49,964 bases of DNA from assembly GCA_048887225.1 (NCBI GenBank), contig JBHLJY010000016.1:1-49964 (forward strand), given 5' to 3'. The position numbers were made by a program, and so were the translations under genes. The notes beneath the pieces are model-generated. The model did not search any database, had not been told where the DNA came from, and worked only from the letters and a program-made list of their open reading frames with translations. Positions 24,879 to 45,289 of this stretch are shown here, one piece after another. The DNA comes from Candidatus Hodarchaeota archaeon (GTDB lineage: Archaea; Asgardarchaeota; Lokiarchaeia; Sigyniarchaeales; SOKP01). Each line of letters opens with the position of its first letter. Within the stretch, counting starts at the first letter, position 1.

Positions 24879-24952
24879 ATTTTTTTCCCATTAATAAATT
24901 CTTAATTTGTTTTATATAATATTTAATTTAACTTTATTAATTAAAATAGATC

Positions 24953-26428
24953 TTAATTTTTAGGTGCGTATTTTAAAGTTTTTGAGAATATTTTTCCAAA
25001 TCTCTCTGTATTAGCTTCGACTAACACGGATCCTTCTACTTTTTCTAAAGGATAGCTTATTTCTATGGATTCAAACGGAAATAATTCTCTTATCGTTGTA
25101 ACCCATGGTCTAGTTTCAAATACTTCGTCTATATTAGCGATGCGTACGCGAATATTATCTAAAGTGAAGCCTGCTGTATTAGTTAATGTTAATTCTAATT
25201 TTTTATCATTTTCATTTAACTCTTTAGCAACTGATATAGCCCGTCTAGCACCTATTAGTGTTTTGGCTTCTTCATCTACTGGTTTGGTTTCAATTTTAGG
25301 TTCTTCCTCAGTTGGTGCGTCTCGAACTATAAAAACTTTTCTTTTCTGTACGGTATATTGACTAACTTTTTTAAGTTTAGCTAAAAACAGTACAGCATTC
25401 AAATTTATTGCATTATAAGGCTCGATTGTTATATATCCTTTTTTAGCAGCATCTTCGATAATTTCAGCTCCAATACCTGTTCGAGCAAAAACTGTATTTT
25501 TATTAGGACCCGATCCGACAGAACCAACTGCTATATCTGCATTTTCAGCAGTTAAATCTGTACAGAAATTACAACTTGAGGATTTATATTTATGTAATTC
25601 TCTAATTGTATAAGATTTTATCGGCTCTTTTTTATCTTCATAATACAATTGAAATTTTCCTTTATGTATGTTCATTTTTACGACTTTAGATAAATCTATT
25701 CCATCTTTCTCAAACATAGGGTATAAAGTCTCTGGAGAAAAGCTATCCATGCAAAATAATCCAATAGTTATTACATTACTTCTAAGAAACCATCTTAGCA
25801 TACCAGCTGGTGAATCCATCATTTTTTTAACAGCATCAATATTACAGGGTGTTCCAACAAATGCTATTGACCTATAATCAGACCTAATTGCGTCCATTAA
25901 TGCATCAACTGTTTGACTATGACAATAAATGGAACCAGAAGACTTTATCGCTCCATCTTTTGAGGTAATTATTTGTGCTACGGGATGCCATAATTTATTA
26001 ATATCGCGCATAGTAACAATTGCTGCGTCTATGAGATGCTCATCAAATAAATAGCATAATAAAGAAGTAACTGTTCCGCCATCTTGACCACCGATTACCT
26101 CAGGGATTTCAGTATTAGCGACATAACCAGATTTAAACTCTCCCATAAGCTGGACGGGATCAGTTATCGTACGGGGGCATTGATTATAACAGATTCCGCA
26201 ACCAGTACATTTACCTATGAGCTTGGGCTGAGAGAGAAGCTCATCCCATTCAAGCACCGGACACACTGCTGCACACGTTCCGCATTCCGTACAGATTCCA
26301 GCACGAATAATCTCTTTCATAAGCATGCCATATGAATCCTTCTTCCCTTCCAATTTCTTTTGAATGAAATCAAACGAAAATTTATATTTTTCACCAGCCT
26401 CTTCATGATTCGCATCTTGTTCTGTCAT
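24953..26428 (-). CDS. FrhB/FdhB-family F420-binding beta subunit with ferredoxin N-terminus and extra C-terminal domain
   Basis: 2x CxxCxxCxxxCP, GQDGGTVT, VGTPC, IGLFCM, CNFCTD, ADIAVGSVG. Confidence 0.9.
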   Translation of the reverse strand: MTEQDANHEEAGEKYKFSFDFIQKKLEGKKDSYGMLMKEIIRAGICTECGTCAAVCPVLEWDELLSQPKLIGKCTGCGICYNQCPRTITDPVQLMGEFKSGYVANTEIPEVIGGQDGGTVTSLLCYLFDEHLIDAAIVTMRDINKLWHPVAQIITSKDGAIKSSGSIYCHSQTVDALMDAIRSDYRSIAFVGTPCNIDAVKKMMDSPAGMLRWFLRSNVITIGLFCMDSFSPETLYPMFEKDGIDLSKVVKMNIHKGKFQLYYEDKKEPIKSYTIRELHKYKSSSCNFCTDLTAENADIAVGSVGSGPNKNTVFARTGIGAEIIEDAAKKGYITIEPYNAINLNAVLFLAKLKKVSQYTVQKRKVFIVRDAPTEEEPKIETKPVDEEAKTLIGARRAISVAKELNENDKKLELTLTNTAGFTLDNIRVRIANIDEVFETRPWVTTIRELFPFESIEISYPLEKVEGSVLVEANTERFGKIFSKTLKYAPKN

Positions 26429-26570
26429 TTTATATGCATTAAAATCTATAATAGTTTTAGATTAATTAATTGCTTATTGGTTAGTTTAATGGAGTAAAAA
26501 AAAAAAAGATTATTAAATTACTAAAAAAGAGAATTTATTTTTTGGATTGTAATTTATAAGACATAAAACT

Positions 26571-28151
26571 TTAATCAGGTTCTTCTTCACCAAGGCGTTT
26601 TTCAATTTTTTTGATCGCCTTTGTGGAAGATATTCTTACAATTCTGTGAAAATCGTTAACCTGTTTTAATAATGCATTAATGGCAGTTTTTCCACCAAAA
26701 TCTTCTAATATTTTAATTAAACTCAATTTTACTTTAGGATTTTCGTCTAAATTATTTTTTAAATGATCTATTAATCGTTCTGAACGCATAACGAAAAATC
26801 TTTCAGATTCAGAACGCTTACTTTCTATACTTAGATTTATAAGGTAAATATTATAAAGAGCGTCGGATGCGACTTTTTTGAGTAGCCAATAATTATTTTT
26901 ATCCTCTATAATGGATATAAGCGGATCCATAGCATCTTTATTACCGATTTTTCCTAACGCAATAGCCGCATTTTTTCGCACATCTAAATTTCTTTTGTTT
27001 AATAACTCAATTAGTGGATTTATGAATAAATCATAACCTAATTCTCCAAATAGATACGCAACACTTTCCAATAATATCTCATTTTTAGTATTTATTATTG
27101 AATATAAGTAGTCAAAATCAGCATCTTTATTCATTAAATATATTTTCTTAATTGCGTCAAGTATATACCATTTCATGTCTAAATCGATGTATTCAAAATG
27201 GAGGTCTTCAATATTTAAAATATTCAATAACTTAGGAACCGTGGATAAATCTCCAATTTCACCTAAAGATTTGATTGATGCTTTACTGACTTCATCGTAA
27301 ATGTTATCTAAATTTTCTAATAACGCATCTCGACCATCCTTAATTTGTAATTCTCCTATTAATTTAATCGCGTTGGTTTTTATAATAAAATCCTCGCTAT
27401 GTACAAAATCTATTAACTCATTATTTATCTCACGACCGATTGCCTTTAATATGATTAAAGCACTATTTAAAAAATCGTCTTTTAAAAAAGTAATGATTAC
27501 TTCCAATAACATTTTTTTATATTGAATTAATTCTGATAGAATTTCTGGATATGTTATTTTGTAAGATTTTGAATCTTTGGGAAAAAGATTAACTGTTGAT
27601 AACTGATGACCAATTAATTTTATTGCCTCAATCTTGTGTTTTTCAGAATAACTATCTTTCTTCAACGATTCTAATAAAAATTTTATTAATTTTTCTGGTT
27701 TCAGTTTTATTAATTGATGTACAACACATTCTTTAATTGATTGATATTTGCTATCCAATTCTTTAATAAAAAGATTAATCTCAGGCTCCGAAAATCGCAC
27801 GTTTGCAATTGTTTTTAATGCTGCAATACTAACTTGGTTATCAGTTGATTCTTGCTCTAATATCCATTTTAAAGGTTTTAGAACTTTATCAATGCCTAAA
27901 AAAGATAATGAATTCGCTGCTTCACATTTCAAATCTATATTGTCATCGGATATCAATATATTTTCTAAAACTTCAAAACATTCTTCTTTTAATATAGTAG
28001 AATTATGAGTAATCAACCCTAAATATTTAATTGCGTTTTTTCTTTTTTTCACATCTTTATCTTTTTCTATTATTTCAAATAACATATTAATTGAATTCTC
28101 AATTCCGAATTCATCACGTTTATGAAATATTTCTTGGGGATTTTTAAACAT
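26571..28151 (-). CDS. HEAT-repeat protein
   Basis: Repeated VRKNAAIALGKIG / KASIKSLGEIG units. Confidence 0.88.
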   Translation of the reverse strand: MFKNPQEIFHKRDEFGIENSINMLFEIIEKDKDVKKRKNAIKYLGLITHNSTILKEECFEVLENILISDDNIDLKCEAANSLSFLGIDKVLKPLKWILEQESTDNQVSIAALKTIANVRFSEPEINLFIKELDSKYQSIKECVVHQLIKLKPEKLIKFLLESLKKDSYSEKHKIEAIKLIGHQLSTVNLFPKDSKSYKITYPEILSELIQYKKMLLEVIITFLKDDFLNSALIILKAIGREINNELIDFVHSEDFIIKTNAIKLIGELQIKDGRDALLENLDNIYDEVSKASIKSLGEIGDLSTVPKLLNILNIEDLHFEYIDLDMKWYILDAIKKIYLMNKDADFDYLYSIINTKNEILLESVAYLFGELGYDLFINPLIELLNKRNLDVRKNAAIALGKIGNKDAMDPLISIIEDKNNYWLLKKVASDALYNIYLINLSIESKRSESERFFVMRSERLIDHLKNNLDENPKVKLSLIKILEDFGGKTAINALLKQVNDFHRIVRISSTKAIKKIEKRLGEEEPD

Positions 28152-28230: not shown

Positions 28231-28317
28231 ATTATCGAGTTGGATCATTTAATTTGGAGGGATTATCGATTGAGATCATTTGACCTGTAAAAATTATCGA
28301 GCATGATCATTTAATTT
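28231..28317. repeat. Three phased direct repeats (31-bp period) of ATTATCGA-N4-GATCATTT, candidate operator array
   Basis: Copies start at 28231, 28262 and 28293, in the divergent intergenic region upstream of hdrA. Confidence 0.8.
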
Positions 28318-28601: not shown

Positions 28602-30572
28602 ATGGAAAAAAATCACACGCAACGGTTTGAAACTAAAAATAACGATAAATTAAAAATAGGATACTATGCTTGCCATTGAGGAATAAACATTAGAGGAAAA
28701 GTTGATTGCGATCAATTAGTAAAATTTGCTGAAAGCCTTGATGATGTTGTTATTGCTAAAACCAATGCTTTTCTATGAACCGAGGCAGCTCAAAATGAAA
28801 TTATTGAGGATATCAAAGAAAAAAATTTAAATAGAATTGTTGCTTCGGCTTGAACACCACGTACACATGAGCCAATATACAGAGAATCAATAGCAAAAAC
28901 TGATTTAAGTCCTTATTATTTTCAAATGGTTAATGTAAGGGAACATTGTAGTTGGGTTACAGAAAGCAACGAAGATGCTTTAGAAAAAGCAAAAATCTTG
29001 GTTAAAAGTGGTATTGAAAGAGCTAAACGCTTAGAAGTTATTCCTATAAGAACGGTTCCAATAACTAAAGCGACTTTGGTAGTTGGAGGAGGAATAGCTG
29101 GCATGAATGCTGCTCTTGACCTTGCAAATCAAGGAATTAAAGTTTACTTAGTAGAGCAAAAAACGACAGTTGGAGGAAGAATGGCTCAATTAGATAGAAC
29201 CTTCCCAACCGACGATTGTGCAATTTGAATTTGTGGTCCAAAAATGTTAGAGGTAAGCCGAAACGAAAACATTGAAATCTTAAGCTATAGCGAAGTAAAG
29301 AAAGTTGAAGGCTATGTTGGGAATTATAATGTAACAGTTGAAAAAAAACCTCGATATATTACAGATGATTGTAATGGTTGCGGAGCTTGTACAGAAGTGT
29401 GTCCAACATATACCGCAAATTATTTCGATGAATATTTAGGGGCACGAAAGGCAATTGATATATCATTTGGCCAAGCAGTACCATTTTTGTACGATATCGA
29501 CCGAAGTACTTGTGTAGAGTGTTTTTCATGTGTTGATGCATGTGAGTTAGATGCTATTGATTTCAGTCAAGAGCCAAAAGAAGTTAATTTTGAGGTTGGA
29601 ACAATTATTATAGCAACTGGTTGGGACATATATGAACCTTTTGGAGAATATGGATATGGTGAATATGAGAACGTAGTTACACAAGCTCAATTAGAGAGAA
29701 TGCTTGCTCCGAATGGACCATTAGGTGGACACGTAAGGAGAATCTCAGATAATAAGAAACTAAAAGAAATTTTATTTATTCAGTGTGTAGGAAGTCGAGA
29801 CACTGAAAGAACGTATTGTAGTGGCGTTTGCTGTATGTTGGCTCTTAAAAATGCGAAATTACTTAAAGAGGAATACCCGGACGCAAATATAACAATTTGC
29901 TATATAGACATTAGAATAAACGAAAAAGGATTTGAAGAGTATTATCAACGTGCTAAAGATTCTGATATTCGATTGATTCGTGGAAAGGTTGGTGAAATTT
30001 TTGAAGATCCTGAGACTAAAAATGTTAATATTCGAGTTTATTCATCTTTAACTGATGAGATTATTAAAATTGACGCTGATTTAATAGTCTTATCTACCGC
30101 AGCGCTACCTTCGAAAGGAACTGAACAAATTGCTAAAATATTGAATTTAGATGTTGATAGAAATGGCTTTCTCACGGAATCTCACTTTGGTTTAATGCCA
30201 CAGGAAACAAAATCAAAAGGTATTTTTATAGCGGGTTTCGCTCAAGGACCAAAAAATATTTCATATTCCGTATCTCAAGCCAGAGCGGCAGCTAGTAAAG
30301 TGGCTGAATTAACTGCTCCTGGAGAAGCAGATCTTGAACTTATCATCGCTGAAGTTGACAAGGATTTTTGCATATCATGCAGAAGATGCGAAAGAGAATG
30401 CCCTAAAGAAGCAATAAAAATTGTTGATGAAGAGGGAGCTGTAGTAGATGAAATTAACTGCGATGGATGCGGAATATGCGCAAGTTGTTGTCCTACAGAA
30501 GCAATAGACATTCGATATTTTCGCGATGACCAATTATATGCTGAAATTTCAGGTATTTTGGAAGGAGGTTAA
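28602..30572 (+). CDS. hdrA: Heterodisulfide reductase subunit A, selenoprotein with 4 Sec (UGA)
   Basis: One continuous frame with TGA at 28677, 28776, 28851 and 29226 (ACHUGINI, FLUT, SAUTPRTHE, TDDCAIUICGPKM). Each aligns to Cys in the paralog at 35058. SD GAGGTG at 28581; alternative GTG start at 28590. Confidence 0.93.
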
Positions 30573-30576
30573 ATAG

Positions 30577-31038
30577 ATGAATTATAAATATAAAATTGTT
30601 ATGTTTGCATGCTTAAAGTGAGGTTATGGTGCTGCAGATTTAGCTGGCGTTTCTCGTATGAAATACACACCTTCAGTAAAAATCATCAAACTAAGGTGTA
30701 CTGGTAGAATTGATACAAAACACATCTTATACACCATCAAATCTGGAGCTGATGGTGTAATGGTTGTTGGATGACGCCCAAATGAGTGTCAATTTAAAAA
30801 TGGTAATTTTACAGCTCAAAAGCATGTGGATTTTGCAAATAGAATATTAGAATCTCGAGGTTTTGGCAGTCAAAGGGTCAACATGTATTGGCTAAGTAGT
30901 GCTGAATCTGAGAAATTAGTTAGAAGTGTTGAAGATGCTTATGAGAAAATTCGAAGAGCTGGTCCTAATCCAATTAATACTATAGATATTAAAACTAAGA
31001 GAAAAGTTAAAGAAAGCTTAACTACTCCCGTTGAATGA
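30577..31038 (+). CDS. mvhD: MvhD/VhuD [2Fe-2S] subunit, selenoprotein with 2 Sec
   Basis: ATG at 30577 after GGAGG. TGA at 30619 (ACLKUGYGAADLAG) and 30772 (VVGURPNEC) correspond to CNWCSYAGADLAG and SGCHIGDC of the Cys paralog at 38158. Confidence 0.93.
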
Positions 31039-31069
31039 GTCTTGTAAGTAAATCTTAGTTGCAAGATGA
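31035..31069 (+). promoter_or_regulatory. Eukaryote-like SECIS element
   Basis: AUGA (31035-38), stem GUCUUGUAA/UUGCAAGAU (9 bp), loop GUAAAUCUUAG containing AAA, then GA (31068-69). Directly 3' of two UGA-containing genes. Confidence 0.85.
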
Positions 31070-31140
31070 CAAGCCGTGCGATGGAGGGGGTTTTAAAACG
31101 AATATAATAAAAATTTAATATTGTAAAAATCGAAGGAAAT

Positions 31141-32643
31141 ATGGTTCAAATTTCAAAGGATTATAATTTTGATGGTATAACTCCAAAAGATCTGTTAGAG
31201 GCTACTTCATTAGCTACGGAAAATTTCCAAGTCAGAGCATTTTTAGAAGCTAAAGATGATATTATCAGACATGAAAAATTTAGCGAAAAAGAGTTTTATG
31301 ACATTTTGGATGCAATGATCGATGCTGAAACAGAACGTAAAATGATATTGGAAGAATTAATAGGTCAGGAACCATTATTTTTAAGAGAAATTATAAATAT
31401 AATTAAAAAATTTCCACCTGAAAACGTTATTAGAGATATAATTTACCTAAAAGAACAAGGTTACGTTGAAGAACTCGTTGAGATTAAAACTAAAAAAGTA
31501 ATTAAAAAGATTAAAGGCGAGGAAAAAGAAGTTGAAGAAAAGGAATATTTCTATAGATATCAAGTAAAAGACCAAAGTGATGACTTCAAGGAGAATTTTT
31601 TTGAACCTGTTTCGCTTGTTTTTGATAATGGTGTTTGTTGTAACTGTGGATGGTGTTCCTCAATATGTCCTTTAGATGCTATTACAGTTACAGCAGATTC
31701 TTTAGAAATTGACGATAATATATGTATTAAATGTGGGTTATGTTTTTCTGTTTGCCCGAGATCTTTTTCGATTGAACAAGCTTATAAGGCAATTAAAAAT
31801 TTAGATAAATCTCTTAAATTTTCTGAGAAAATTTTACATTATAAAAATACATATTCGGGCACTACAACTAACGAAGAAATTAAAAAAGTTCGACAAGACG
31901 GAGGAATAGTTACATCTCTACTAGAATATTTATTAAAGAATAAATTAGTTGATGCTATTATAGCAGTACAACATTCCAAGGATTTATGGAAACCAGAACC
32001 GGTAATTGTAGAGGATGTAAAAGATTTATACTCCACGAGTGGAACAAAATATGCTAATTCCCCTTCATTAGTGATTATTGATAAAGCAAAAAAGTATGAT
32101 AGTATAGCAATTGTAGGTGTTCCATGCATGATGAAGGCTATTGAGAAAGGTTCATTATTTCCAAGTGGGTTACCATTTTTTAAAAACATCAAATATAAAA
32201 TTGGACTTTTTTGCATGGAATCTTTTTCTTATGATAATATTATTAATTTGGTTAAAGACAAATTTAACAAAGACATTAATGATTTAATTAAAATGAATAT
32301 TGATAAGGGTAAATTTATAATAACTTTGAAAAGTGGAGAAGAATTGAATGTCCCTCTATCTGAAATTCAATCGTACGCTCGCGATACATGTCATTATTGT
32401 GAAGATTTAACCTCTGATTATGCTGACATATCAGTTGGTTCAATTGGTTCACAAGCTGGTTGGTCGTCCGTGATTACAAGGACAAAAAAAGGGGAAGAGA
32501 TTTACAAAGGAGCAATTAAGGATGATTTAATTGAATCAAAGAGCTTAAAAGATGTTAAACCGGGGCAATTTTTAGTAGAAAAGATTGGCGGGATTAAAAG
32601 AAATAAATGTAAACCATTTGAATTAAAAAAGAAATTAATCTAA
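31141..32643 (+). CDS. FrhB-family F420-binding subunit with N-terminal helical/wHTH-like domain and ferredoxin
   Basis: 2x CxxCxxCxxxCP, RQDGGIVT, SGTKY, VGVPC, IGLFCME, CHYCED, ADISVGSIG. Confidence 0.9.
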   Translation: MVQISKDYNFDGITPKDLLEATSLATENFQVRAFLEAKDDIIRHEKFSEKEFYDILDAMIDAETERKMILEELIGQEPLFLREIINIIKKFPPENVIRDIIYLKEQGYVEELVEIKTKKVIKKIKGEEKEVEEKEYFYRYQVKDQSDDFKENFFEPVSLVFDNGVCCNCGWCSSICPLDAITVTADSLEIDDNICIKCGLCFSVCPRSFSIEQAYKAIKNLDKSLKFSEKILHYKNTYSGTTTNEEIKKVRQDGGIVTSLLEYLLKNKLVDAIIAVQHSKDLWKPEPVIVEDVKDLYSTSGTKYANSPSLVIIDKAKKYDSIAIVGVPCMMKAIEKGSLFPSGLPFFKNIKYKIGLFCMESFSYDNIINLVKDKFNKDINDLIKMNIDKGKFIITLKSGEELNVPLSEIQSYARDTCHYCEDLTSDYADISVGSIGSQAGWSSVITRTKKGEEIYKGAIKDDLIESKSLKDVKPGQFLVEKIGGIKRNKCKPFELKKKLI

Positions 32644-32657
32644 GCTGAATTAATATT

Positions 32658-33770
32658 ATGACTCCAAAAAAATTCCAAGATTTAATTGATGAGGTTCATA
32701 ATAAAGGAATTTGTCAGGAATGTGGTGGATGCGTAAGTTTCTGTAGTTCAGCCGAATATGATGTGATCAAATTTGTAGATGGATATTCGTATCCAGTATT
32801 CATTCAAAAAGATAAATGTCTTGAGTGTGGAATTTGCTATTGTATTTGTCCGCAAACTCATATTTTAGATGAGTCTTTAAATCAAACATATAAATTTTCA
32901 GATTATTCTTCTATGCCTCTTGGCTTTTTTGAGGAAATTTGTTCTTGCCAAGCTACAGATAAAGAATTTCTAAAATATGGTACAGATGGAGGTGTAGTAA
33001 ATTCAATTATAAATTATTTGTTAGAAAAAAAAATTGTTGACGGAGCAATAGTATCTAAAGTTGAGGGGCCATTTTCCAGAGAAGCTATGTTTGCTGATAA
33101 AAAAAATGAGTTACTTAAGGCCTCAGGTACTAAATTGGAGATATCTTCACATTTAGACGAAATTCAGAAATTCTGTACTTATACTCATTCAATTCCGAAA
33201 TTAAATCATTATAAATTCAAAAAACTAGTTGTTGTAGGTACTCCATGTCAGCTTTATACAATCAGATGTATGCAAAATTTGGGAGTCACACCTTCACAAA
33301 ATATTGAAATTTGTCTTGGGTTGTTTTGTTATGAGAATTTTCAATTTGATAAAATTCAAGTGAAGAAATTTGAAAAAGATTTTGCTATCGAATTCGAAAA
33401 TATCGAAAAGATAAATATCAGAGAAGATTTAATCTTAAAATTGAGAGATGATGGTTCTGGAGAAAGAATAGTTCACATTCCATTTAATCACTTAACTGAT
33501 TATATACGTCCTGCTTGTAAAGCTTGCAATGACTTTACCAATATCTATGCAGATATTTCCTTTGGAGGTCTTGGTTCACAAGAGAAATATACTACTGTAA
33601 TCCCACGAACTGAAAAAGGAAATGAAATTCTAAAAAAAGCAAAAAGTGATGGAATAATTCGTTGTTTGGATTTAAATGAGACAAGTAAAAATAATATAGA
33701 AAAACTAGTATCTCAATATTCTCAAATGAAAATAAATCGAAAAAAAAATTTCATGAATGAATTAAAGTAG
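32658..33770 (+). CDS. FrhB-family F420-binding subunit
   Basis: CQECGGC, TDGGVV, VGTPCQ, LGLFCYENF, CKACND, ADISFGGLG. Confidence 0.9.
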   Translation: MTPKKFQDLIDEVHNKGICQECGGCVSFCSSAEYDVIKFVDGYSYPVFIQKDKCLECGICYCICPQTHILDESLNQTYKFSDYSSMPLGFFEEICSCQATDKEFLKYGTDGGVVNSIINYLLEKKIVDGAIVSKVEGPFSREAMFADKKNELLKASGTKLEISSHLDEIQKFCTYTHSIPKLNHYKFKKLVVVGTPCQLYTIRCMQNLGVTPSQNIEICLGLFCYENFQFDKIQVKKFEKDFAIEFENIEKINIREDLILKLRDDGSGERIVHIPFNHLTDYIRPACKACNDFTNIYADISFGGLGSQEKYTTVIPRTEKGNEILKKAKSDGIIRCLDLNETSKNNIEKLVSQYSQMKINRKKNFMNELK

Positions 33771-33774
33771 CGAA

Positions 33775-35058
33775 GTGAAAATTACGACAGAAATTAAAAG
33801 GAACTCTAAATTAGAAGAAAAAACCGTTGATGATATTGAATTTTATTTAAACAAGAGTTACCATCCTACTTTAAGAAATTTGTTAAAAAGATGTTATCAG
33901 TGTGGTCGATGTAGTGGTGTTTGCCAATTATCAAAAGTCCAAAAGTTTACACCTAGTAGAATTATTCAAATGGTATTAGAAGGCTTTGAAGATAAAATTA
34001 TAGAAAGTGGAGTATTATGGGATTGTTTGACCTGCAACACATGCCTTCAACATTGTCCAGAAAATATTAATTTTGCGGATATTGTGAGAAATGCAAAATA
34101 TAGGATGAGAAATTCAGCTAATCAAAATCCTGATGAATATATTGCTCATAAAGGTATTTATACTACGATATCCGAGATAATGAGTCAATCTAATATCAAT
34201 CCAGAAAGAAATCTTGATTGGATCCCAAAAGAATGTAAAATTTCGAAAAAAGGAAATATTTTATATTATGTGGGATGTTTACCCTTTTTTAATTACGAAT
34301 TTGAGGATTTAACTAACATTGCAACTAGTACGTTAAAAATAATATGTCAAGTTGAAAAAGAACCAATAGTAGTTTTAAAAGAAGAGAATTGTTGCGGACA
34401 TGACCTATATTGGGGTCAGGGAAAACTTAAGACGTTCATAAAGTTAGCAAAAAAAAATATAGATATGTTCAAAGACGCTGGAATCTCTAAAATTATAACT
34501 GCATGTGCTGAGTGTTATCGAACATTTAAAGTGGATTATCCAGATATATTTGAGGATTTTAGTGAAAAGTTCGAGGTTCAGCATATTATAGAATATGTAT
34601 ATGAAAAATGGAAGCAAAATAAAATCGATTTTATAACTCCAAAAGAAAGTGATGAAAGAATTACCTTCACTTATCATGATCCTTGTAGACTGAGCAGATT
34701 TTTACCTAAGGATAACAAAATAATGGAAAAAGTCAGAGAAATCTTTAAAGAATTTAGAGAATTAGGTTATGATTTTAATGAAATGGAACATAATAAAGAA
34801 AATTCATTATGTTGCGGCGTTAATTCTTGGATGAATTGTAATGAAAAATCAAAAGCACTACGATATAAACGCATGTTAGAAGCTAAAGCTGCTGGTAATA
34901 TCATGGTAACATCTTGTCCAAAATGTAATATACATTTGAGTTGTATTCAAAACGATTTTGAAGATCTTTCTTCAATAAAGATTTTAGATTTCTCTGAATT
35001 TTTAATTGATCATGTAGAATTAAAGTCATCAGATAAAATTGAGGAGGTTGAGAAATAA
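33775..35058 (+). CDS. HdrD-like (HdrC-type ferredoxin + CCG domains) Fe-S oxidoreductase
   Basis: CYQCGRCSGVC, CLTCNTCLQHCP, YVGC, CCG, TACAEC, YHDPC, CCG, TSCPKC. Confidence 0.88.
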   Translation: MKITTEIKRNSKLEEKTVDDIEFYLNKSYHPTLRNLLKRCYQCGRCSGVCQLSKVQKFTPSRIIQMVLEGFEDKIIESGVLWDCLTCNTCLQHCPENINFADIVRNAKYRMRNSANQNPDEYIAHKGIYTTISEIMSQSNINPERNLDWIPKECKISKKGNILYYVGCLPFFNYEFEDLTNIATSTLKIICQVEKEPIVVLKEENCCGHDLYWGQGKLKTFIKLAKKNIDMFKDAGISKIITACAECYRTFKVDYPDIFEDFSEKFEVQHIIEYVYEKWKQNKIDFITPKESDERITFTYHDPCRLSRFLPKDNKIMEKVREIFKEFRELGYDFNEMEHNKENSLCCGVNSWMNCNEKSKALRYKRMLEAKAAGNIMVTSCPKCNIHLSCIQNDFEDLSSIKILDFSEFLIDHVELKSSDKIEEVEK

Positions 35059-38000
35059 TGGAAGGCTCAGTTCTAGTTATCGGAGGGGGTATTGCTGGAA
35101 TACAAGCATCTCTTGATTTAACTGAATTAGGATTCAAAGTTTATTTAGTAGAAAGAAATCCTTCAATTGGAGGAAGGATGGCACAGTTAGATAAAACTTT
35201 TCCAACAAATGACTGTTCACTTTGTATTCTTGCACCTAAAATGGTGGAAATTTTTCGGAATCCTAACATTGAACTCTTAACTTATCACGAAGTTAAAAAA
35301 GTTGCTGGAGAACTTGGAGATTTTTCTGTTACAATTCTTAAGAAACCACGATACATTGATGAAACAAAATGTAAAGGTTGTGGTGACTGCGCTGCTAAAT
35401 GCCCTAAAATAGAAGTTCCAAATCTTTTCGATATGAATTTAGGTAAAAGAAAGTCTGTGTATATTCCATTTCCTCAAGCGGTTCCGCCCATTTATTTAAT
35501 TGATCCTGAGTTATGTTTAAAAATAACTAAAGGAGTATGCGGGGTATGCGAAAAAGTTTGCGCTGCTGAAGCTATTGATTATGAACAAAAACCTCAAGAA
35601 ATTAATTTAAAAGTAGGAGCAATTGTTGTTGCAACTGGTTTTGATATGCCAGCAGAAAAATTAAATTCAAGATGGGGTTATCATTATAAAAATGTTATTA
35701 GTGCTCTTGAATATGAGAGAATTTTATGCGCATCTGGACCGTTTGGGGGTCATGTATTAAGACCAAGCGATGAGAAAGAACCTGAAATAATTGCGTTTAT
35801 TCAATGTGCCGGCTCAAGGGATTTACATGAGCAAATACCTTATTGTTCAAGCGTATGTTGTATGTATACTGCTAAAGAATCAATTATCACTAAAGAACAT
35901 TCTGAAAGATCAAAATGCTTTGTATTTCGACATGATATTAGAGCTTTCGGTAAAAATTTCTATGAATTTACTCAAAGAGCTCAAGAAGAATACGGAGTAA
36001 AATATTTTCAAACCAAAATTAGTAAAATTGAAGAAGATCCTGAAACTAATGACCTAATTATTCACTATGAAGATTTAAAAAATGGAGGTTTCAATGATTT
36101 CAGAGCTAATTTAGTGATTTTAGCCACGCCATTGGTTCCTTCTGATGGGGCTAAGGAATTATCCGAGATTTTAAATATAGAACAAGATGAATATGAATTT
36201 TTCAAAGAAAAATCATATTTTAACAAATCTTCATCCTCGAGAGAAGGTGTGTTCTTATGCGGTTTCTGTCAAGGTCCAATGGATATACCTGAGACTGTAG
36301 CAGATGCAAGTGGAGTGGCAGGCCAAGTAGCTGCTTTATTAACCACTACAAAATTTAGTCAAGTAAAAGAAAAAGCATTAGAAGTACCAGAAAAAGAAGT
36401 AAAAATTACAGATGAACCAAGAATTGGTGTTTTAATTTGCCACTGTGGTATCAATATTGGCAAGTATGTCGAAGTCCCCAACATAGCCGAATATGTACGA
36501 ACATTACCTAATGTTGTACATTGTGAAGATAATTTATATTCATGTAGTTCCGATTCCCAGGCAAGAATTAAAGAATTAATTAAAGAGCATAATTTGAATA
36601 GATTTATTGTAGCATCGTGTACACCAAGAACTCATGAAGCACTATTCCAAGAAACATGTGAAGAATCAGGTTTAAATAAATATCTCTTTGAGATGGTAAA
36701 TATTCGTGACCAATGTTCATGGGTTCATATGACCGAATATGAGGCAGCCACTCAGAAAGCTAAAGATTTAATTAGAATGGCTGTTGCAAAATCAAGATTA
36801 TTAAAGCCTCTTAAAGAAGAATTATTACAAATAACTCCTACTGCATTAATTATTGGTGGTGGAATTTCAGGAATGAGCGCAGCTTTAAACATTGCTAATC
36901 AAGGATTTAAAACCTTCATTGTTGAGAAGGAGAAATTTCTAGGTGGAAACTTAAATTACTTAAATGTCTTATATCCTATTGAAGAAAGTGCTTCAGATTT
37001 CCTTAATGAAACTATTACAAGGGTAAAGAATAATAAAAATATTCAGATTTTCTTGGGTTCAAAAATAAAAGAAATAAAAGGATATGTTGGAAATTATTTA
37101 GTCTCTATTATTGATTCAAATAACGAAACTCACGAACTAAGTATAGGAACAATTATTGTTGCTACAGGAGGGCAGGAATACAAACCTAAGGATATTTTTC
37201 AATATGGTAATGGAAATAAGAATGTTATAACTCAATTAGAATTAGAAAAAATATTAAAAGAAAAAGGAAAATCTTGGCTTGATGGAATAAATCGTATTAC
37301 AACAATTTTATGTGTTAATGCAAGACAAAATGAAGGAATAACATATTGCTCTAATATTTGTTGTGGAAATTCTATAAAAAACTTAGGGCTTCTAAAAAAG
37401 TTAAAACCTGAACTTGAACTAGTTGTTCTTTACAGAGATCTTCAAATGGCAAAAAAAAAGTATGAACAATACTATCGCGAACATAGAAAAAATGCTATAT
37501 TTTTAAGGTATGATCTAGATAAAATGCCAATTATAGAACAAAATAGTAAAAATCCCGAAAAATATAGAATAAAAGTATTTGATACAAATTTACAAGATTA
37601 TATAGAATTAGATACTGATTTAATTATTTTATCAACTCCAATGATTCCTGCTGATAATTTAGAAGAATTAGCAAAAATGCTTAAAGTTCCTTTAGATAAA
37701 AACGGATTTTTCTTAGAAGCCCATGTCAAATTGAGACCGTTGGATTTTGCGACTGATGGTATTTTCTTATGCGGATGTGCTCAATGGCCAAAAAACGTGC
37801 AAGATTCGATTTCCCAGGCAAATGGTGCAGCAGGAAGAGCTAGTAGGTTTTTAAGCGCTAAAGAGATTACAACTTCAGGAATAGTCGCAGAGGTAAATCC
37901 AATAGATTGTATCGGATGTGGGAAATGCGAATCTGTCTGTCCATACAACGCTATTGAACTTTTAGAATCAGTAAAAGATTTTGAAGAAGTAAGTTTAGTA

Positions 38001-38141
38001 GTAAAAAAATCCTTTGTTAATTCTGCATTATGTAAAGGTTGCGGAACTTGTGCAGCTACTTGCCCTAATGGGGCAATATCGATAATGCAGTATGATTTTG
38101 ACCAAATATCTGCTATGATTGAATCATATTTACTTAAATAA
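35058..38141 (+). CDS. hdrA: Large HdrA-family flavoprotein with two FAD modules, all-Cys
   Basis: Two GGGxxG motifs, GGRMAQLDKTFPTNDC, internal CHCGINI/ASCTPRTHE module, C-terminal ferredoxin. Confidence 0.92.
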   Translation: MEGSVLVIGGGIAGIQASLDLTELGFKVYLVERNPSIGGRMAQLDKTFPTNDCSLCILAPKMVEIFRNPNIELLTYHEVKKVAGELGDFSVTILKKPRYIDETKCKGCGDCAAKCPKIEVPNLFDMNLGKRKSVYIPFPQAVPPIYLIDPELCLKITKGVCGVCEKVCAAEAIDYEQKPQEINLKVGAIVVATGFDMPAEKLNSRWGYHYKNVISALEYERILCASGPFGGHVLRPSDEKEPEIIAFIQCAGSRDLHEQIPYCSSVCCMYTAKESIITKEHSERSKCFVFRHDIRAFGKNFYEFTQRAQEEYGVKYFQTKISKIEEDPETNDLIIHYEDLKNGGFNDFRANLVILATPLVPSDGAKELSEILNIEQDEYEFFKEKSYFNKSSSSREGVFLCGFCQGPMDIPETVADASGVAGQVAALLTTTKFSQVKEKALEVPEKEVKITDEPRIGVLICHCGINIGKYVEVPNIAEYVRTLPNVVHCEDNLYSCSSDSQARIKELIKEHNLNRFIVASCTPRTHEALFQETCEESGLNKYLFEMVNIRDQCSWVHMTEYEAATQKAKDLIRMAVAKSRLLKPLKEELLQITPTALIIGGGISGMSAALNIANQGFKTFIVEKEKFLGGNLNYLNVLYPIEESASDFLNETITRVKNNKNIQIFLGSKIKEIKGYVGNYLVSIIDSNNETHELSIGTIIVATGGQEYKPKDIFQYGNGNKNVITQLELEKILKEKGKSWLDGINRITTILCVNARQNEGITYCSNICCGNSIKNLGLLKKLKPELELVVLYRDLQMAKKKYEQYYREHRKNAIFLRYDLDKMPIIEQNSKNPEKYRIKVFDTNLQDYIELDTDLIILSTPMIPADNLEELAKMLKVPLDKNGFFLEAHVKLRPLDFATDGIFLCGCAQWPKNVQDSISQANGAAGRASRFLSAKEITTSGIVAEVNPIDCIGCGKCESVCPYNAIELLESVKDFEEVSLVVKKSFVNSALCKGCGTCAATCPNGAISIMQYDFDQISAMIESYLLK

Positions 38142-38157
38142 AAAATAGGAATACATT

Positions 38158-38595
38158 ATGCCAAAAGCGAAAACGAAAAAACTAAAGAAAGAATTTAACC
38201 CAGAAATTTTAGTTTTTTGTTGTAATTGGTGTTCTTATGCTGGAGCCGATTTAGCGGGAGTATCTCGATTTCAATATCCTCCTAATATGAGAATTGTTCG
38301 TGTAATGTGTTCTGGGAGAGTCGATCCCTCATTTATTTTGAAAGCGCTTAAAGATGGAGCAGATGGTGTTCTCATTAGTGGATGCCATATAGGTGATTGC
38401 CATTATATTTCTGGAAATGAATATGCTAAAGAAAGATTTGAGCGATTACATAAAATTATTATTAAACAATTAGGAATTGATGAAAAGCGCGTAAGACTTG
38501 AATGGGTAAGTGCTTCTGAAGGCAAACGATTTGCTGATCTAATTACAGAATTCACAAATGATATAAAAGAATTAGGGCCTTTAAGAGCCATTTAA
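38158..38595 (+). CDS. mvhD: MvhD [2Fe-2S] subunit, Cys form
   Basis: CCNWCSYAGADLAG, MCSGRVD, GCHIGDCHY, WVSASEG. Confidence 0.95.
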   Translation: MPKAKTKKLKKEFNPEILVFCCNWCSYAGADLAGVSRFQYPPNMRIVRVMCSGRVDPSFILKALKDGADGVLISGCHIGDCHYISGNEYAKERFERLHKIIIKQLGIDEKRVRLEWVSASEGKRFADLITEFTNDIKELGPLRAI

Positions 38596-39004
38596 ATTAT
38601 ATCGATAAATTTTACTAAATCCTAAAATTTCACTTTTTTTCTAATTTTATTTATTGATGTAATAAAAGGATCATTAAAAAAAATTCTCTTTCTGATCTCG
38701 ATAATTCTAGTATGTTTCATGATCGATATCAATCACATTTACTTAAAATAGTATCGACTTCGCGAGGAATGCTAGAAATAGATAAGAATAAGAATTAATT
38801 ATGTCTGATCCCGATCACAAATAATGGTTAAATAACGAATATGCAAAAATTGCACTTAAATTTATGTTTGATATTGATAAAAATATTTATATACTAAAGT
38901 GTATTTAATTATTGATTAACAAAAAAACTATTTCCAATTTGATTGTATTGATTTTTGCCATTTTTTACATATTTATCTAAATCCTTTTAAGAGGGGGAAG
39001 TTTA

Positions 39005-41767
39005 ATGGAAGGATCTGTATTGGTAATTGGAGGAGGTATAGCCGGGATACAAGCATCCTTGGATCTGACGGATTTAGGATTTAAAGTTTACTTAGTAGAG
39101 AGAAATCCATCAATAGGTGGTCGTATGGCTCAATTTGATAGATTATTCCCTGCTACCGACTGCAGTTTATGTGTTCTCACTCCAAAAATGGTTTCTATAT
39201 ATAGGAATCCAAATATTGAATTGTTTACTCTAACGGAAGTTAAAAAAGTATTAGGAGAACCAGGGAATTTTATAGTTACTGTGATTAAGAAGCCAAGATA
39301 TATTGATGAGACAAAATGCAGAGGATGTGGGGATTGTGCTGCTAAATGCCCGAAGGTGGAAGCTCCAAATATTTTTGATATGAATTTAGGGAAAAGAAAA
39401 TCTATATATCTTCCATTTCCACAAGCAACTCCTCCAGTATATTTAATTGATCCTGAGTTGTGTTTATATCTAAACAGAGATGTATGTGGAGTATGTCAAA
39501 AAGTCTGCAAAGCTGGAGCTATAGATTATGAACAAATACCCCAAGAAATAGAATTAAAAGTTGGAGCTATTGTAGTTGCTACAGGATTCGAGATGCTTGG
39601 GGAGGAATTGCCATCAAGATGGGGTTATAAGTATGAAAATGTTGTTAATGGATTAGAATATGAAAGAATTTTATGTCCCACTGGTCCCTTTGGAGGTCAA
39701 ATTTTACGACCAAGTGATATACAAATACCTGAAAAGATAGCTTTTATTCAATGTGCTGGTTCTGGATATTTAGAAAAAAGCGTACCGTATTGTTCAAGAG
39801 TTTGTTGTATGTATACAGCAAAAAATGCAATTCTTACAAAAGAAAGGTATGAAGATATTCAAATTTCTATATTTAGACATAATATTAGAGTGTTTGGAAA
39901 AAACTTTTATGAATATACTAAATCAGCTCAAGAGGATTACAATATAAGATATCAAAATGCAACAATTAAATATATTAACGAAGATCCAGAAACTAAAGAC
40001 ATAATTATTAAATATGAAGATTTAAAAACAGGAGAGAGAAATAAAGAATTTCGGGCTAATTTAGTAGTATTGGCTGCTCCATTGGTTCCAGCTAAAAGTA
40101 CTGAAGAATTAGCAAAAATATTAGGTATTAAATTAGATTTTAATAAATTTTTTAAAGAAGCATCTTATTTTAATAAATCCTTATCTACAAGAAAAGGAAT
40201 ATACTTATGTGGATTTTGCCAAGGACCAATGAATATATCGGAGACTGTGGTGAATGCAAGCGCAGTGGCAGCTCAAGTTGCTATATTATTGAGTTCTGCT
40301 AAATTTACTCAAGTTAAAGAGAGAGAAAGTGATATCCTACCAAAGAAAGAAATTATAAAGATTACTCCTCGGGCACTAATCATTGGTGGTGGAGTTTCTG
40401 GGATGACAGCAGCACTAAATATTAATAATCAAGGCTTCGAAACGATAATTGTGGAAAAAGAAGAAGAACTAGGTGGTAATTTAAAATATATTAACATTCT
40501 ATATCCAATACGCCAAAAGGCTGAAGCCTTTCTAAATAACCTTCTAAAAAAAATTGAAATGAATGAACGCATTCATGTATATTTTAACTCAAAAATTAAA
40601 AATGTTTCAGGCTCAATTGGTAATTATGATATAACTATAGTAGATTCAAATAAAAATATTCAAAATTTCAAAGTTGGAACAATTATAATCGCAACTGGAA
40701 GTCAGGAATTTAAACCACGTGGAATATTTCAATATAATCCAAATAATAAAAGTATTTTGACTCAATTAGAATTGGAGCAGCGTCTTAAAAATAACGACAC
40801 ATCATGGCTTGACAATTTAAAACATATCACAATAATTATGTGTGTTTATGCGAGATACAAGTTCGGGTTACGTTATTGTTCTAATGTATGTTGCAGTAAT
40901 ACTATTAAAAATATTGATATTTTAAAAGAATTAAAGCCAGAACTTGAAATCGTAGTCCTCTTTAGAGATCTTCACATGGCTAAAAAGGAGTGCGAAGAAA
41001 TGTGCAGAGAAAGAAAAAAAATTGCTAATTATCTAAGATACAATGTAGAAAATATTCCAGAAATTACGAAAATTAAAAACAATCCAGAGAAATACGCTAT
41101 TATATTACAGAACGATTTAAAACCAAATGAATATATAAATTTTGAAACAGATCTTATAATTTTATCAACTCCAATGATTCCATCTGAGGGTTTACAAGAA
41201 TTAGCAAATATATTAAGTGTTCCGTTAGATGAAAATGGATTTTTTATAGAAGCTCACACAAAATTACGACCATTAGATTTTGCAGCACATGGGATTTTCA
41301 TATGTGGTTGTGCTCAATGGCCAAAAAATGTTCAAGATTCAATAGCAGAAGCAAATGGCGCAGCAGGAAGAGCAAGTAGATTCTTAAGTATCAAAGAGAT
41401 ATCAACAACAAAATTGGAATTTCTTTCATTTATGCTTTCTATCGAGTGCTTCTTTAAAGACATGGTCATTAATATTGAAAAGTGTAATGGTTGCGGAAGA
41501 TGCGTAGAAGTTTGTTCTTTTAAAGCAATCAATCTTGTTGATATGAAGAAAGATTTTGAAGATATAAGTCTGCCCATTAAAAAGGCATTTATAAATCCTG
41601 CGATATGTAAAGGGTGTGGGAGGTGTGCAGCAACGTGTAGGTTAAAAGCAATAGACGCAAGACATTACGACTTTAAACAAATTTCTTCAATAATAGATCC
41701 ATATTTTTTAGAAAGAAAAATGTCAAAGGAAGAAAACGAAGAACAACCTTTATTTTCCGTTTTGTAA
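39005..41767 (+). CDS. hdrA: HdrA-family paralog lacking the internal CHC/CTPRTHE module
   Basis: N-terminus nearly identical to the 35058 ORF; two GGGxxG motifs; shorter central region. Confidence 0.9.
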   Translation: MEGSVLVIGGGIAGIQASLDLTDLGFKVYLVERNPSIGGRMAQFDRLFPATDCSLCVLTPKMVSIYRNPNIELFTLTEVKKVLGEPGNFIVTVIKKPRYIDETKCRGCGDCAAKCPKVEAPNIFDMNLGKRKSIYLPFPQATPPVYLIDPELCLYLNRDVCGVCQKVCKAGAIDYEQIPQEIELKVGAIVVATGFEMLGEELPSRWGYKYENVVNGLEYERILCPTGPFGGQILRPSDIQIPEKIAFIQCAGSGYLEKSVPYCSRVCCMYTAKNAILTKERYEDIQISIFRHNIRVFGKNFYEYTKSAQEDYNIRYQNATIKYINEDPETKDIIIKYEDLKTGERNKEFRANLVVLAAPLVPAKSTEELAKILGIKLDFNKFFKEASYFNKSLSTRKGIYLCGFCQGPMNISETVVNASAVAAQVAILLSSAKFTQVKERESDILPKKEIIKITPRALIIGGGVSGMTAALNINNQGFETIIVEKEEELGGNLKYINILYPIRQKAEAFLNNLLKKIEMNERIHVYFNSKIKNVSGSIGNYDITIVDSNKNIQNFKVGTIIIATGSQEFKPRGIFQYNPNNKSILTQLELEQRLKNNDTSWLDNLKHITIIMCVYARYKFGLRYCSNVCCSNTIKNIDILKELKPELEIVVLFRDLHMAKKECEEMCRERKKIANYLRYNVENIPEITKIKNNPEKYAIILQNDLKPNEYINFETDLIILSTPMIPSEGLQELANILSVPLDENGFFIEAHTKLRPLDFAAHGIFICGCAQWPKNVQDSIAEANGAAGRASRFLSIKEISTTKLEFLSFMLSIECFFKDMVINIEKCNGCGRCVEVCSFKAINLVDMKKDFEDISLPIKKAFINPAICKGCGRCAATCRLKAIDARHYDFKQISSIIDPYFLERKMSKEENEEQPLFSVL

Positions 41768-44167: not shown

Positions 44168-45289
44168 TTACCCATTTTTTTTAAAAAATGGAATAATTTC
44201 ATCAGAAATTATCTGTGATACATCCCAATAGGTAAAAGGAGCATTTTTACTCGAAGCACTGTTCCAAATCTCGAAAATAAAGTATTGTGCCCCTGCATCA
44301 ATGTAATTTTGAATTTTTTTAATGATCTCTTCTTTAGTTCCTATCAAGGTATTTTCACGTATCATTTTATCTGGAATCTGGTCATTAATTGTAGATAATT
44401 TATTAATATCAAATTTTCCAACATCTTCCCGGTCAATTTGAAGTAAGCTCATCTCATCGCAGTTATAACCTGTTGCTTCACAATATAATTCGTCAAATTC
44501 GTCTTTCCAAAATCCAAGTTTCTTAATTAAAGAAGGCTGGAACACCCAAGTCATTTTAAGAGCATTAATCTGTTCACTTATTCTCTTTTCGTCATTGTTC
44601 AAATATATGCGGTGGAATACAGCAAAAGTGAATTTATCTATCTCACGACCTTCTTTTTTGATAACTTCAGCAATTTCATTTCGACCTTCCTTAAATACAT
44701 CAGTAATAACACCCAAGGGCATCCAACCATCTGCTATTTCAGCGGTCATTTCCCGAGTTTTTGGACTATTTGCCGCAACCCATACGGGTATTTCTGAAAT
44801 CGGTTTCGGAAGTAATACAGCCTTTTTCGTTTGGTAATACTTACCATTAAACGTTACTCTCTTACCTTTTTTCCAAAATAATTTCATTAATTGGATAGAT
44901 TCCCTCATCTTTCCAAGAGCATGATCGTATGGGATATTGTATGCCTTTAAATTCATCCCTTCACCAGCTCCTATTCCTAAAATAAAATTGCCCCCATTCA
45001 TATGATTAATCGTCGTAGCCATTTGGCCTAAAACAGCAGGGTGATATCTGTGTGGATCAGTTACAGCAGATCCGAAGGTTTTCCCTTTAGTTAATTCTAT
45101 AAATGAGCCGAACATAGGCCATAAGGTTAGAAAATCATCGATTGTACCTCCTGGAATACCACTCAAATGATCAGGCAGCCAGATTGAATCCCAATTTTCC
45201 CGATTAGCAGCTATAATTTTTTTTCTAACAAATTCATAAGAATTGGAATAAAACAATTGAGTTCCAAATTTAATTTCATTATTTAGCAT
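44168..45289 (-). CDS. LLM-class (luciferase-like) oxidoreductase, probably F420-dependent
   Basis: WLPDH, VTDPHRYHPAVLGQ, LGIGAGEGMN, ADGW. Confidence 0.85.
   Translation of the reverse strand: MLNNEIKFGTQLFYSNSYEFVRKKIIAANRENWDSIWLPDHLSGIPGGTIDDFLTLWPMFGSFIELTKGKTFGSAVTDPHRYHPAVLGQMATTINHMNGGNFILGIGAGEGMNLKAYNIPYDHALGKMRESIQLMKLFWKKGKRVTFNGKYYQTKKAVLLPKPISEIPVWVAANSPKTREMTAEIADGWMPLGVITDVFKEGRNEIAEVIKKEGREIDKFTFAVFHRIYLNNDEKRISEQINALKMTWVFQPSLIKKLGFWKDEFDELYCEATGYNCDEMSLLQIDREDVGKFDINKLSTINDQIPDKMIRENTLIGTKEEIIKKIQNYIDAGAQYFIFEIWNSASSKNAPFTYWDVSQIISDEIIPFFKKNG

Follow-up and report, generated by a model that had tools for sequence, protein, structure and literature searches.

Several F420-linked Hdr systems have been described or proposed in archaea. 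In the closest experimentally solved analog of the system studied here, Elp-Hdr (2025, PMC12350162; PDB 8rvu), an FrhB/FdhB homolog and an MvhD homolog take the place of the hydrogenase, so that bifurcation is driven by F420H2. A further F420-dependent example is HdrA2B2C2 of Methanosarcina (PMC8498797), and similar gene clusters have been proposed to perform such bifurcation in anaerobic methanotrophic archaea (ANME; Chadwick et al. 2022, PMC9012536). For Korarchaeia, the cited passages of PMC10667645 propose that co-located frhB, hdrA, and mvhD genes encode a reduced-ferredoxin:F420 oxidoreductase. We analyzed contig JBHLJY010000016.1 (C16 in our numbering) from the genome of a Candidatus Hodarchaeota archaeon (GCA_048887225.1; 3.27 Mb, 98% complete, about 30% G+C). 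The window referred to below is this whole contig, 49,964 bp long. Its Gtr1/RagA-type GTPase gene and the named sources of close homologs (Promethearchaeota/Lokiarchaeota) point to a Loki-type Asgard archaeon. The contig carries eight redox genes that probably constitute a cluster of operon-like organization, conserved in one Lokiarchaeial (Promethearchaeota) family and encoding hydrogenase-independent, HdrA-type machinery for flavin-based electron bifurcation.

The balance of ferredoxin, F420, and H2 in Loki-type Asgard archaea is central to syntrophy models of eukaryote origin, and the many Hdr genes of these organisms have no known substrate. Each element of the present cluster has already been published: multi-selenocysteine (multi-Sec) HdrA-VhuD pairs (2016, 2024), fused HdrAs (2022, 2024), HdrA-MvhD-FrhB modules in ANME and Korarchaeia (2015-2023), and F420-dependent Hdr biochemistry (2017, 2025). 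A literature search found no paper on this conserved seven- or eight-gene operon as such. Among hydrogenase-free Hdr units, it is the most complete one of an entire Lokiarchaeial family, combining a putative F420 module with an adaptor, flavoproteins for bifurcation, and a disulfide reductase. This completeness, with catalytic motifs intact, makes it a defined and compact target for expression, structure determination, and assay. The operon is thus useful, but it is not a surprise.

Gene order and conservation of the cluster

With UGA read as Sec, the plus strand between 28602 and 41767 contains the eight genes in the order hdrA(Sec)-mvhD(Sec)-SECIS-frhB1-frhB2-hdrD-like-hdrAA1-mvhD(Cys)-hdrAA2, where SECIS stands for a selenocysteine insertion sequence. 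The first seven are spaced by 4, 102 (with the SECIS inside), 14, 4, -1, and 16 nucleotides (nt) and look co-transcribed; hdrAA2 is preceded by a 409-nt gap (38596-39004). Domain content and cofactor motifs are intact in all eight proteins. The initial annotation had described the order as hdrA(Sec)-mvhD(Sec)-frhB-frhB-hdrD-like-hdrA-mvhD-hdrA, and every gene was recovered at the coordinates it gave, as was the third frhB (frhB3), which lies on the minus strand (24953-26428). Its "hdrA(Cys)" genes, however, do not encode ordinary HdrAs: both products, of 1027 and 920 amino acids (aa), are fusions of two HdrA flavoprotein units, for which we use the names HdrAA1 and HdrAA2. We could also confirm that the window encodes no catalytic subunit of a hydrogenase or formate dehydrogenase. 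The contig gave zero matches to the NiFe large subunit (PF00374) or molybdopterin oxidoreductase (PF00384) families, and a Pfam scan of the remaining open reading frames (at least 100 aa, no overlap) found no subunit of either enzyme. Those frames encode, among others, chaperones, methylmalonyl-CoA mutase, a GH31 glycosidase, and a luciferase-like monooxygenase (LLM) family oxidoreductase.

For the synteny analysis, 16 loci were fetched from relatives of the same family, representing several genera. As far as the loci reach, 15 of them preserve the order of these seven genes at the front of the cluster, with protein identities of 56-98%; given this retention, the arrangement is far beyond chance. 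Within the stretches fetched, the eighth gene, hdrAA2, turned up in 10 of the 15 syntenic loci, and its distance from the others varies. To survey the distribution of the operon, we used FrhB2 as its marker in a phylum-wide sample. An ortholog was present in 22 of the 29 genomes of the same family (f1) and in 0 of 121 genomes from 24 other families. Synteny across Asgard genomes, the check proposed in the initial annotation, thus yields an order conserved within a single family, to which FrhB2 is restricted within the sample.

Selenoproteins, HdrD-like protein, and fused HdrAs

The first gene, hdrA (28602-30572, plus strand), encodes a canonical-length HdrA of 656 aa, with UGA at codons 26, 59, 84, and 209 and a TAA stop. 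Its product matches the solved HdrA 9sfi_A (E 2e-202) and the NCBIfam HdrA/HdrA2 models. All four UGAs align to Cys, or to Sec (X), of 9sfi_A and to Cys in paralogs; codon 209 faces the X, which we read as the Sec of that chain. Among orthologs, positions 26, 84, and 209 are always UGA where covered, and position 59 is either Sec or Cys. Four nucleotides past hdrA begins mvhD (also vhuD; 30577-31038, plus strand), whose 153-aa product matches Pfam FlpD (1e-42) and NCBIfam VhuD. Its UGA codons, 15 and 66, correspond to Sec residues that are invariant in 15 orthologs. The stop codon of mvhD is the UGA within the AUGA of a Loki-type (eukaryote-like) SECIS (31035-31069, plus strand), identified by sequence and fold, with a 9-bp stem, an 11-nt A-rich loop, and GA. 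We ruled out a pseudogene or an alternative genetic code, on the grounds that every in-frame UGA falls at a Cys position, that a SECIS accompanies them, and that mvhD itself stops on UGA.

Of the 15 loci from relatives, 14 have the same SECIS architecture 3' of mvhD. Where the loop is 11 nt long (14 elements, counting the one in the window), loop positions A3-A5 are invariant and stem pair 6 covaries, being G-C in 6, A-U in 7, and G-U in 1. Rfam gave no match for the Loki-type SECIS. A single SECIS behind mvhD would serve all six UGA codons of the two genes. Three of the four Sec residues of HdrA occupy N-domain positions and the fourth is the equivalent of Cys197, which ligates the cluster of the N-terminal domain (Chadwick et al. 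2022, PMC9012536); the four therefore probably surround one [4Fe-4S] cluster. Of the Sec machinery, the genome encodes SepSecS (E 6.5e-119) and a SelD with an in-frame TGA.

This pair has the same arrangement as the multi-Sec HdrA-VhuD pairs of Lokiarchaeota (Mariotti et al. 2016, PMC4989117; Huang et al. 2024, PMC11227280). The cited passages of PMC4989117 describe a multi-Sec HdrA, a two-Sec VhuD, one SECIS shared by both genes and placed after vhuD, and hdrA genes that never stop on UGA, an arrangement surveyed further in those of PMC11227280. Common to both sets, as far as these passages go, are UGAs at conserved Cys positions, including the canonical one near 200, and the AUGA/9-bp stem/11-nt loop/GA structure. 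They reveal no essential difference, and the pair in the window is a further member of the group. The same passages hold no description of FrhB, HdrD, or fused-HdrA genes 3' of the pair.

The hdrD-like gene (33775-35058, plus strand) encodes a 427-aa fusion of an HdrC-like and an HdrB-like part (Pfam CCG twice and Fer4; HdrC and HdrB matches in the PDB). The protein appears competent for catalysis by sequence, since both HdrC-type CX2CX2CX3C motifs (residues 40-50 and 84-94) and two complete CCG motifs (168-247 and 304-384) are present. In the canonical MvhAGD-HdrABC complex, by contrast, HdrB and HdrC are separate proteins, and MvhA/MvhG accompany HdrA-MvhD. The cluster in the window has neither MvhA nor MvhG; a pair of these genes lies on another contig, C12.

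The hdrAA1 gene (35058-38141, plus strand) encodes a fused, asymmetric double HdrA of 1027 aa, which NCBIfam HdrA models match in three stretches. Its first half has an FAD (flavin adenine dinucleotide) unit, the Cys197 equivalent, an inserted ferredoxin domain, and the cluster motif CxGSRD...YCSxxCC, with no N-terminal domain. Between the two halves, according to a half-by-half alignment, lies an HdrA N-terminal cluster domain. In the second half, an FAD unit with neither Cys197 nor the inserted domain is followed by a C-terminal ferredoxin domain. HdrAA1 is, in its predicted layout, an intramolecular and asymmetric version of the HdrA dimer. Its homologs form more than 120 clusters at 78% identity or above, and those with a source name are mostly from Promethearchaeota/Lokiarchaeota. 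Next come the all-Cys mvhD (38158-38595, plus strand; 145 aa; Pfam FlpD 5.5e-57), the likely partner of the fused HdrAs, and hdrAA2 (39005-41767, plus strand; 920 aa), whose double HdrA has the HdrAA1 layout minus the middle N-terminal cluster domain.

Fused HdrAs longer than 1000 aa are known from ANME (PMC9012536), where, as in HdrAA1, the N-terminal cluster domain and Cys197 sit on opposite halves. Compared with the ANME HdrA3/4 type, however, the halves of HdrAA1 are reversed, the one bearing Cys197 coming first, and HdrAA2 has no N-terminal domain at all. The ANME HdrA clusters also resemble the present one in having no hydrogenase, in their FrhB-only input modules (ANME-1), and in an HdrD-like protein beside HdrA. 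They differ in that a canonical multi-Sec HdrA occurs here, in another lineage with another metabolism (no Mcr). Double-HdrA fusions of Loki- and Thorarchaeota were catalogued by Padalko et al. (2024, PMC11237513); the cited passages give neither the internal asymmetry nor the operon context, both resolved here for HdrAA1.

The Sec and Cys proteins of the cluster have low sequence identity. HdrAA1 and HdrAA2 share 43-46% identity with the Sec HdrA, over one half only. For the Cys MvhD, the value is 34% with the Sec MvhD and 55-63% with the MvhDs encoded after other fused HdrAs in the genome. In orthologous loci from about a dozen genera, the Sec MvhD is always Sec and the Cys MvhD always Cys. 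The two types behave as old, co-conserved, non-equivalent paralogs and should be annotated as different subunits rather than as isoforms.

F420 linkage, proposed mechanism, and alternative readings

The three FrhB-family proteins are the only recognizable substrate-handling modules of the cluster. FrhB1 (31141-32643, plus strand; 500 aa) combines an N-terminal winged helix, a 2x[4Fe-4S] ferredoxin domain, and the FrhB F420-oxidoreductase core. It matches Pfam FrhB_FdhB_N/C, NCBIfam NF006807 (274.5 bits against a cut-off of 269), and FrhB in the PDB (E 3.6e-55). Its fold matches are 8riu_B, 8rja_E, FrhB, Fsr, and ElpB; the best of them, those in 8riu and 8rja, are the FrhB-like subunits of Ethanoperedens carbon monoxide dehydrogenase (CODH)/Fmd shown to reduce F420 (PMC11493965). 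FrhB2 (32658-33770, plus strand; 370 aa) consists of a 2x[4Fe-4S] domain and the FrhB core, and FrhB3 (491 aa) is encoded between genes for a RagA-like GTPase and a HEAT-repeat protein; both are recognized by Pfam and NCBIfam. All three proteins have the FrhB_FdhB_N and FrhB_FdhB_C domains, the eight Cys of the 2x[4Fe-4S] domain, and the four Cys of the core [4Fe-4S] cluster. They match F420-reactive members of the family (FrhB, Fsr, CODH/Fmd subunits) with E values of 1e-55 to 1e-40 and the ferredoxin-dependent HCAR with 1.4e-6, a ranking repeated by fold comparison.

Two of these proteins have extensions in which Pfam found no match, namely the C-terminal one of FrhB3 (24956-25411, minus strand; about 150 aa) and the N-terminal helical and winged-helix domain of FrhB1 (31141-31590). 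The winged helix, at about residues 63-146, is modeled with a pLDDT (predicted local distance difference test) score of 85 and matches Fur/ArsR/MarR-type domains with Z scores of 8-9.4; it is a generic winged helix that falls in no specific family. It is common to the FrhB1 paralogs on contigs C12 and C1. In Elp-Hdr and other solved complexes, an ElpA/FdhA-type scaffold bridges ElpB/FdhB to MvhD; the winged helix might be a docking piece that replaces it, or a DNA-binding domain.

The initial annotation had named missing F420 biosynthesis as a finding that would overturn its reading. What we found in the genome was cofH (above cut-off), cofC, cofD, two cofE genes (one long and FbiB-like), and an F420-dependent Mtd, in agreement with published predictions for Lokiarchaeota. 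A cofG-like match beside cofH is weak (E 1.5e-13) and is to the cofH model rather than to a cofG model, and no Mer in the genome scored above the TIGR03555 cut-off. At the gene level, the organism appears equipped to make F420, and use of F420 by the cluster is plausible. FrhB-family genes and cofH share a phyletic pattern, both being found in families f1 and f4. Neither was found in the sister family f2 (11 genomes, two of them single-contig, within relatives G025-G040), at thresholds of E<=1e-30 for FrhB-family genes and E<=1e-60 for cofH. The independent contrasts in this pattern are few. F420-linked metabolism may thus separate the two Lokiarchaeial families f1 and f2. Since FrhB and FO synthase genes were not found in f2, closed genomes included, conclusions drawn from one family may not transfer to another.

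The reading we favor is that the cluster encodes an Hdr system of the Elp-Hdr kind, linked to F420(H2) and using flavin for bifurcation or confurcation. The likeness extends to an FrhB/FdhB-family, F420H2-oxidizing type of subunit in place of the hydrogenase, an MvhD-type [2Fe-2S] adaptor, a bifurcating HdrA, and a CCG-type disulfide reductase, and ElpB is among the fold matches of FrhB1. Unlike Elp-Hdr, however, the cluster has no ElpA (a truncated FdhA). Its two FrhB genes encode N-terminal ferredoxin domains and, in one case, also a winged helix; HdrB and HdrC are fused as the HdrD-like protein; fused double HdrAs are added; and HdrA and MvhD each have more than one Sec. The host, moreover, is a non-methanogen. 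For ElpA, the Pfam content of the cluster shows no such gene and the contig no molybdopterin-family match; the former is the firmer basis, because ElpA has no molybdopterin-binding region and may be missed by PF00384.

From the parts, their motifs, the synteny, and the cofactor-pathway genes, we infer subunit contacts, direction, and substrates as follows. FrhB1 and FrhB2 would exchange hydride with F420/F420H2 at their FAD. Single electrons would then travel over the three [4Fe-4S] clusters of these proteins and reach MvhD, the [2Fe-2S] adaptor. The downhill electron would run from the HdrA cluster next to the FAD to the HdrC-like part of HdrD and on to its two non-cubane cluster (CCG) sites, where a disulfide would be reduced. 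The uphill electron would leave through the ferredoxin-like domains to ferredoxin (Fd). The overall reaction would be 2 F420H2 + Fd(ox) + RS-SR' <-> 2 F420 + Fd(red) + RSH + R'SH, with the reverse possible. In the cell, such an enzyme would link the F420 pool, used by Mtd of the tetrahydromethanopterin (H4MPT) one-carbon pathway and by LLM-type oxidoreductases, to the ferredoxin pool without H2.

The initial annotation had proposed one F420H2-fed bifurcating or confurcating complex in a non-methanogen. Its hydrogenase-free character, the proximity of its FrhBs to F420-reactive members, and the cof genes speak for that proposal, although the proteins may form more than one complex. Several observations weigh against the mechanism outlined above. 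The model is transferred from homologous solved complexes, none of which is an Asgard Hdr, and whether the system bifurcates or confurcates cannot be read from sequence. A contact between FrhB and MvhD is unproven, as the cluster has no ElpA/FdhA-type scaffold. The Fsr/FrhB structural paper reports a charged cleft only and no density for bound F420; because the F420-binding residues of FrhB are structurally undefined, F420 specificity depends on family placement and co-occurrence. As to the target disulfide, Loki-type archaea have no Mcr (10.1101/826495), and ComA, for coenzyme M synthesis, was not found in the genome, a weak negative given that the Methanosarcina control gave no match either. 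The tRNA-Sec, too, was not found in the assembly (Rfam RF01852 above threshold, ARAGORN), the RF01852 matches being ordinary tRNAs for Arg, His, Gly, and Ser. This is so despite five Sec hdrA and four Sec mvhD genes, a UGA-containing selD, and SepSecS in the genome; the tRNA-Sec gene may be unassembled or too divergent for the RF01852 and ARAGORN models. Finally, the modules are split in paralogous loci (C1, C12), so the eight genes may build two or three enzymes.

These paralogous loci are numerous. The genome has five Sec HdrAs, four all-Cys canonical HdrAs, at least five fused HdrAAs, eleven MvhDs, and about nine FrhBs. On contig C1, a minimal hdrA(Sec)-mvhD(Sec)-frhB1-like module stands by itself between ribosomal-protein and seryl-tRNA synthetase genes. 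Contig C12 carries a rearranged redox island (C12:28000-47900) that includes a co-directional hdrD-hdrAA-mvhD unit, an FrhB1-like gene, an FrhB fused to a TrmB-type domain, an Lrp/AsnC regulator, and an FrhB2-like gene. The island also contains an hdrA with five in-frame UGAs and no mvhD behind it, and a gene for an 849-aa HdrA-MvhD fusion (N-terminal DUF7347) followed by MvhG and MvhA. Its frhB genes and Sec hdrA are on other strands than hdrD-hdrAA-mvhD. On contig C5, a fused HdrAA-MvhD is coupled with an HdrC-like gene.

The main alternative, a real if lesser possibility, is that the same parts build two or three separate enzymes. HdrA(Sec)-MvhD(Sec)-FrhB1, with or without FrhB2, could be a thiol-independent reduced-ferredoxin:F420 oxidoreductase as proposed for Korarchaeia; HdrD-HdrAA1-MvhD(Cys) could be an independent bifurcating disulfide reductase with another donor; and HdrAA2 could work elsewhere. 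The solitary module on C1, the co-directional unit on C12, and the fused HdrAA-MvhD on C5 speak for such a split, as does the variable position of hdrAA2, with a conserved TATA-like block of its own. The Korarchaeia with a Wood-Ljungdahl pathway that carry the proposed oxidoreductase are, like the present organism, non-methanogens with an H4MPT one-carbon pathway and a hydrogenase-free HdrA-MvhD-FrhB module. Their module differs in having three genes, no HdrD, no fused HdrA, and, in the cited passages of PMC10667645, no reported selenoproteins. Against a full separation stand the 4- and -1-nt junctions of frhB2/hdrD/hdrAA1 and the seven-gene order retained in 15 of 16 loci across genera, which together argue for co-translation and joint function of at least FrhB2-HdrD-HdrAA1-MvhD. 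Neither FrhB1 nor FrhB2 can be assigned to one HdrA type from the sequence data.

At the other extreme, all seven or eight proteins could form one selenium-dependent supercomplex, an arrangement we consider doubtful. In it, the N-terminal [4Fe-4S] cluster of a canonical HdrA dimer would be ligated by up to four Sec, and the asymmetric fused HdrAA would share the FrhB input and the single HdrD output with this dimer. If this were true, the assembly would be a two-flavin (double-bifurcation) machine and the main H2-independent site coupling F420, ferredoxin, and a thiol cofactor in the one-carbon and fermentative metabolism of a major Lokiarchaeial family.

It is improbable that the FrhB-like subunits work without F420, either as Fe-S flavoprotein connectors for ferredoxin or NAD(P)H, as in the HCAR/BciB branch, or by docking onto a hydrogenase or formate dehydrogenase encoded elsewhere. 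The family does hold ferredoxin-dependent members, as the HCAR match illustrates, and FrhB2 and FrhB3 score below the NCBIfam FrhB cut-off. Elsewhere in the genome, three sites match the NiFe large subunit, and four matches to the molybdopterin family are spread over three sites. Yet the FrhBs are far nearer to F420-reactive members in both sequence and fold, the F420 biosynthesis set and Mtd are present, and FrhB genes follow the same phyletic pattern as cofH. The Mvh-type hydrogenase, for its part, has its own adjoining HdrA-MvhD fusion, which makes recruitment of MvhA/MvhG in trans by the cluster in the window less likely.

Weakest of all is the claim, made in the initial annotation, of paired Sec and Cys isoforms in selenium-dependent and selenium-independent modules, with the Cys set substituting under selenium scarcity: both types of HdrA and MvhD do share one cluster, and Methanococcus maripaludis, with Sec and Cys homologs of hydrogenase- and Hdr-associated proteins in one genome, uses Cys isoforms upon selenium depletion (cited passages of PMC11097638), but the Cys proteins here, unlike those described there, differ in architecture (a 656-aa HdrA against 1027- and 920-aa double fusions), have the low identities given above, fall, in the case of MvhD, in the clade behind fused HdrAs, and are co-located and co-conserved with their Sec counterparts in every orthologous locus, both types unchanged. 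Co-transcription of the first seven genes, as they look to be organized, would moreover be the opposite of alternative expression, and the canonical all-Cys HdrA-MvhD pairs that do exist, on C12, are 44-45% identical to the Sec HdrA.

Flanking genes and sequence elements

Adjoining the cluster on the minus strand (23970-28151) is a block formed by the RagA/Gtr1-like GTPase gene, frhB3, and the HEAT-repeat gene. Among the upstream neighbors in relatives, FrhB3 and HEAT are present in 7 of 7 loci and RagA in 6 of 7; this association of a Rag-like GTPase with an F420-type oxidoreductase may be mere family-level synteny. On the other side, the LLM oxidoreductase gene (44168-45289, minus strand) is one of four such paralogs in the genome, and among NCBIfam models it comes closest to F420-dependent Mer/LLM families, without reaching the cut-off of any.

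A scan for sigma-70 promoters and terminators gave counts equal to those in shuffled sequences, the model being a sigma-70 one and the host an archaeon, and the window had no match to Rfam (gathering thresholds) or in ARAGORN. About 110 nt upstream of hdrAA2, the A/T block AAATATTTATATAC (38881-38894, plus strand) resembles an archaeal TATA box. It is unique in the window and is the only well-conserved block in an alignment of the gap from seven loci. We take it for a putative promoter, and its conservation before hdrAA2 suggests that this gene is transcribed separately.

The divergent HEAT/hdrA promoter region contains three operator-like boxes, TATCGA-N4-GATCAT (28233-28310, plus strand; direct-repeat family D1), with a phasing of exactly 31 nt. 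Nowhere else in the 3.27-Mb genome does an exact copy occur. The boxes are also present upstream of hdrA in two loci of the same genus and were not seen in the loci of other genera; they look like a genus-specific operator array.

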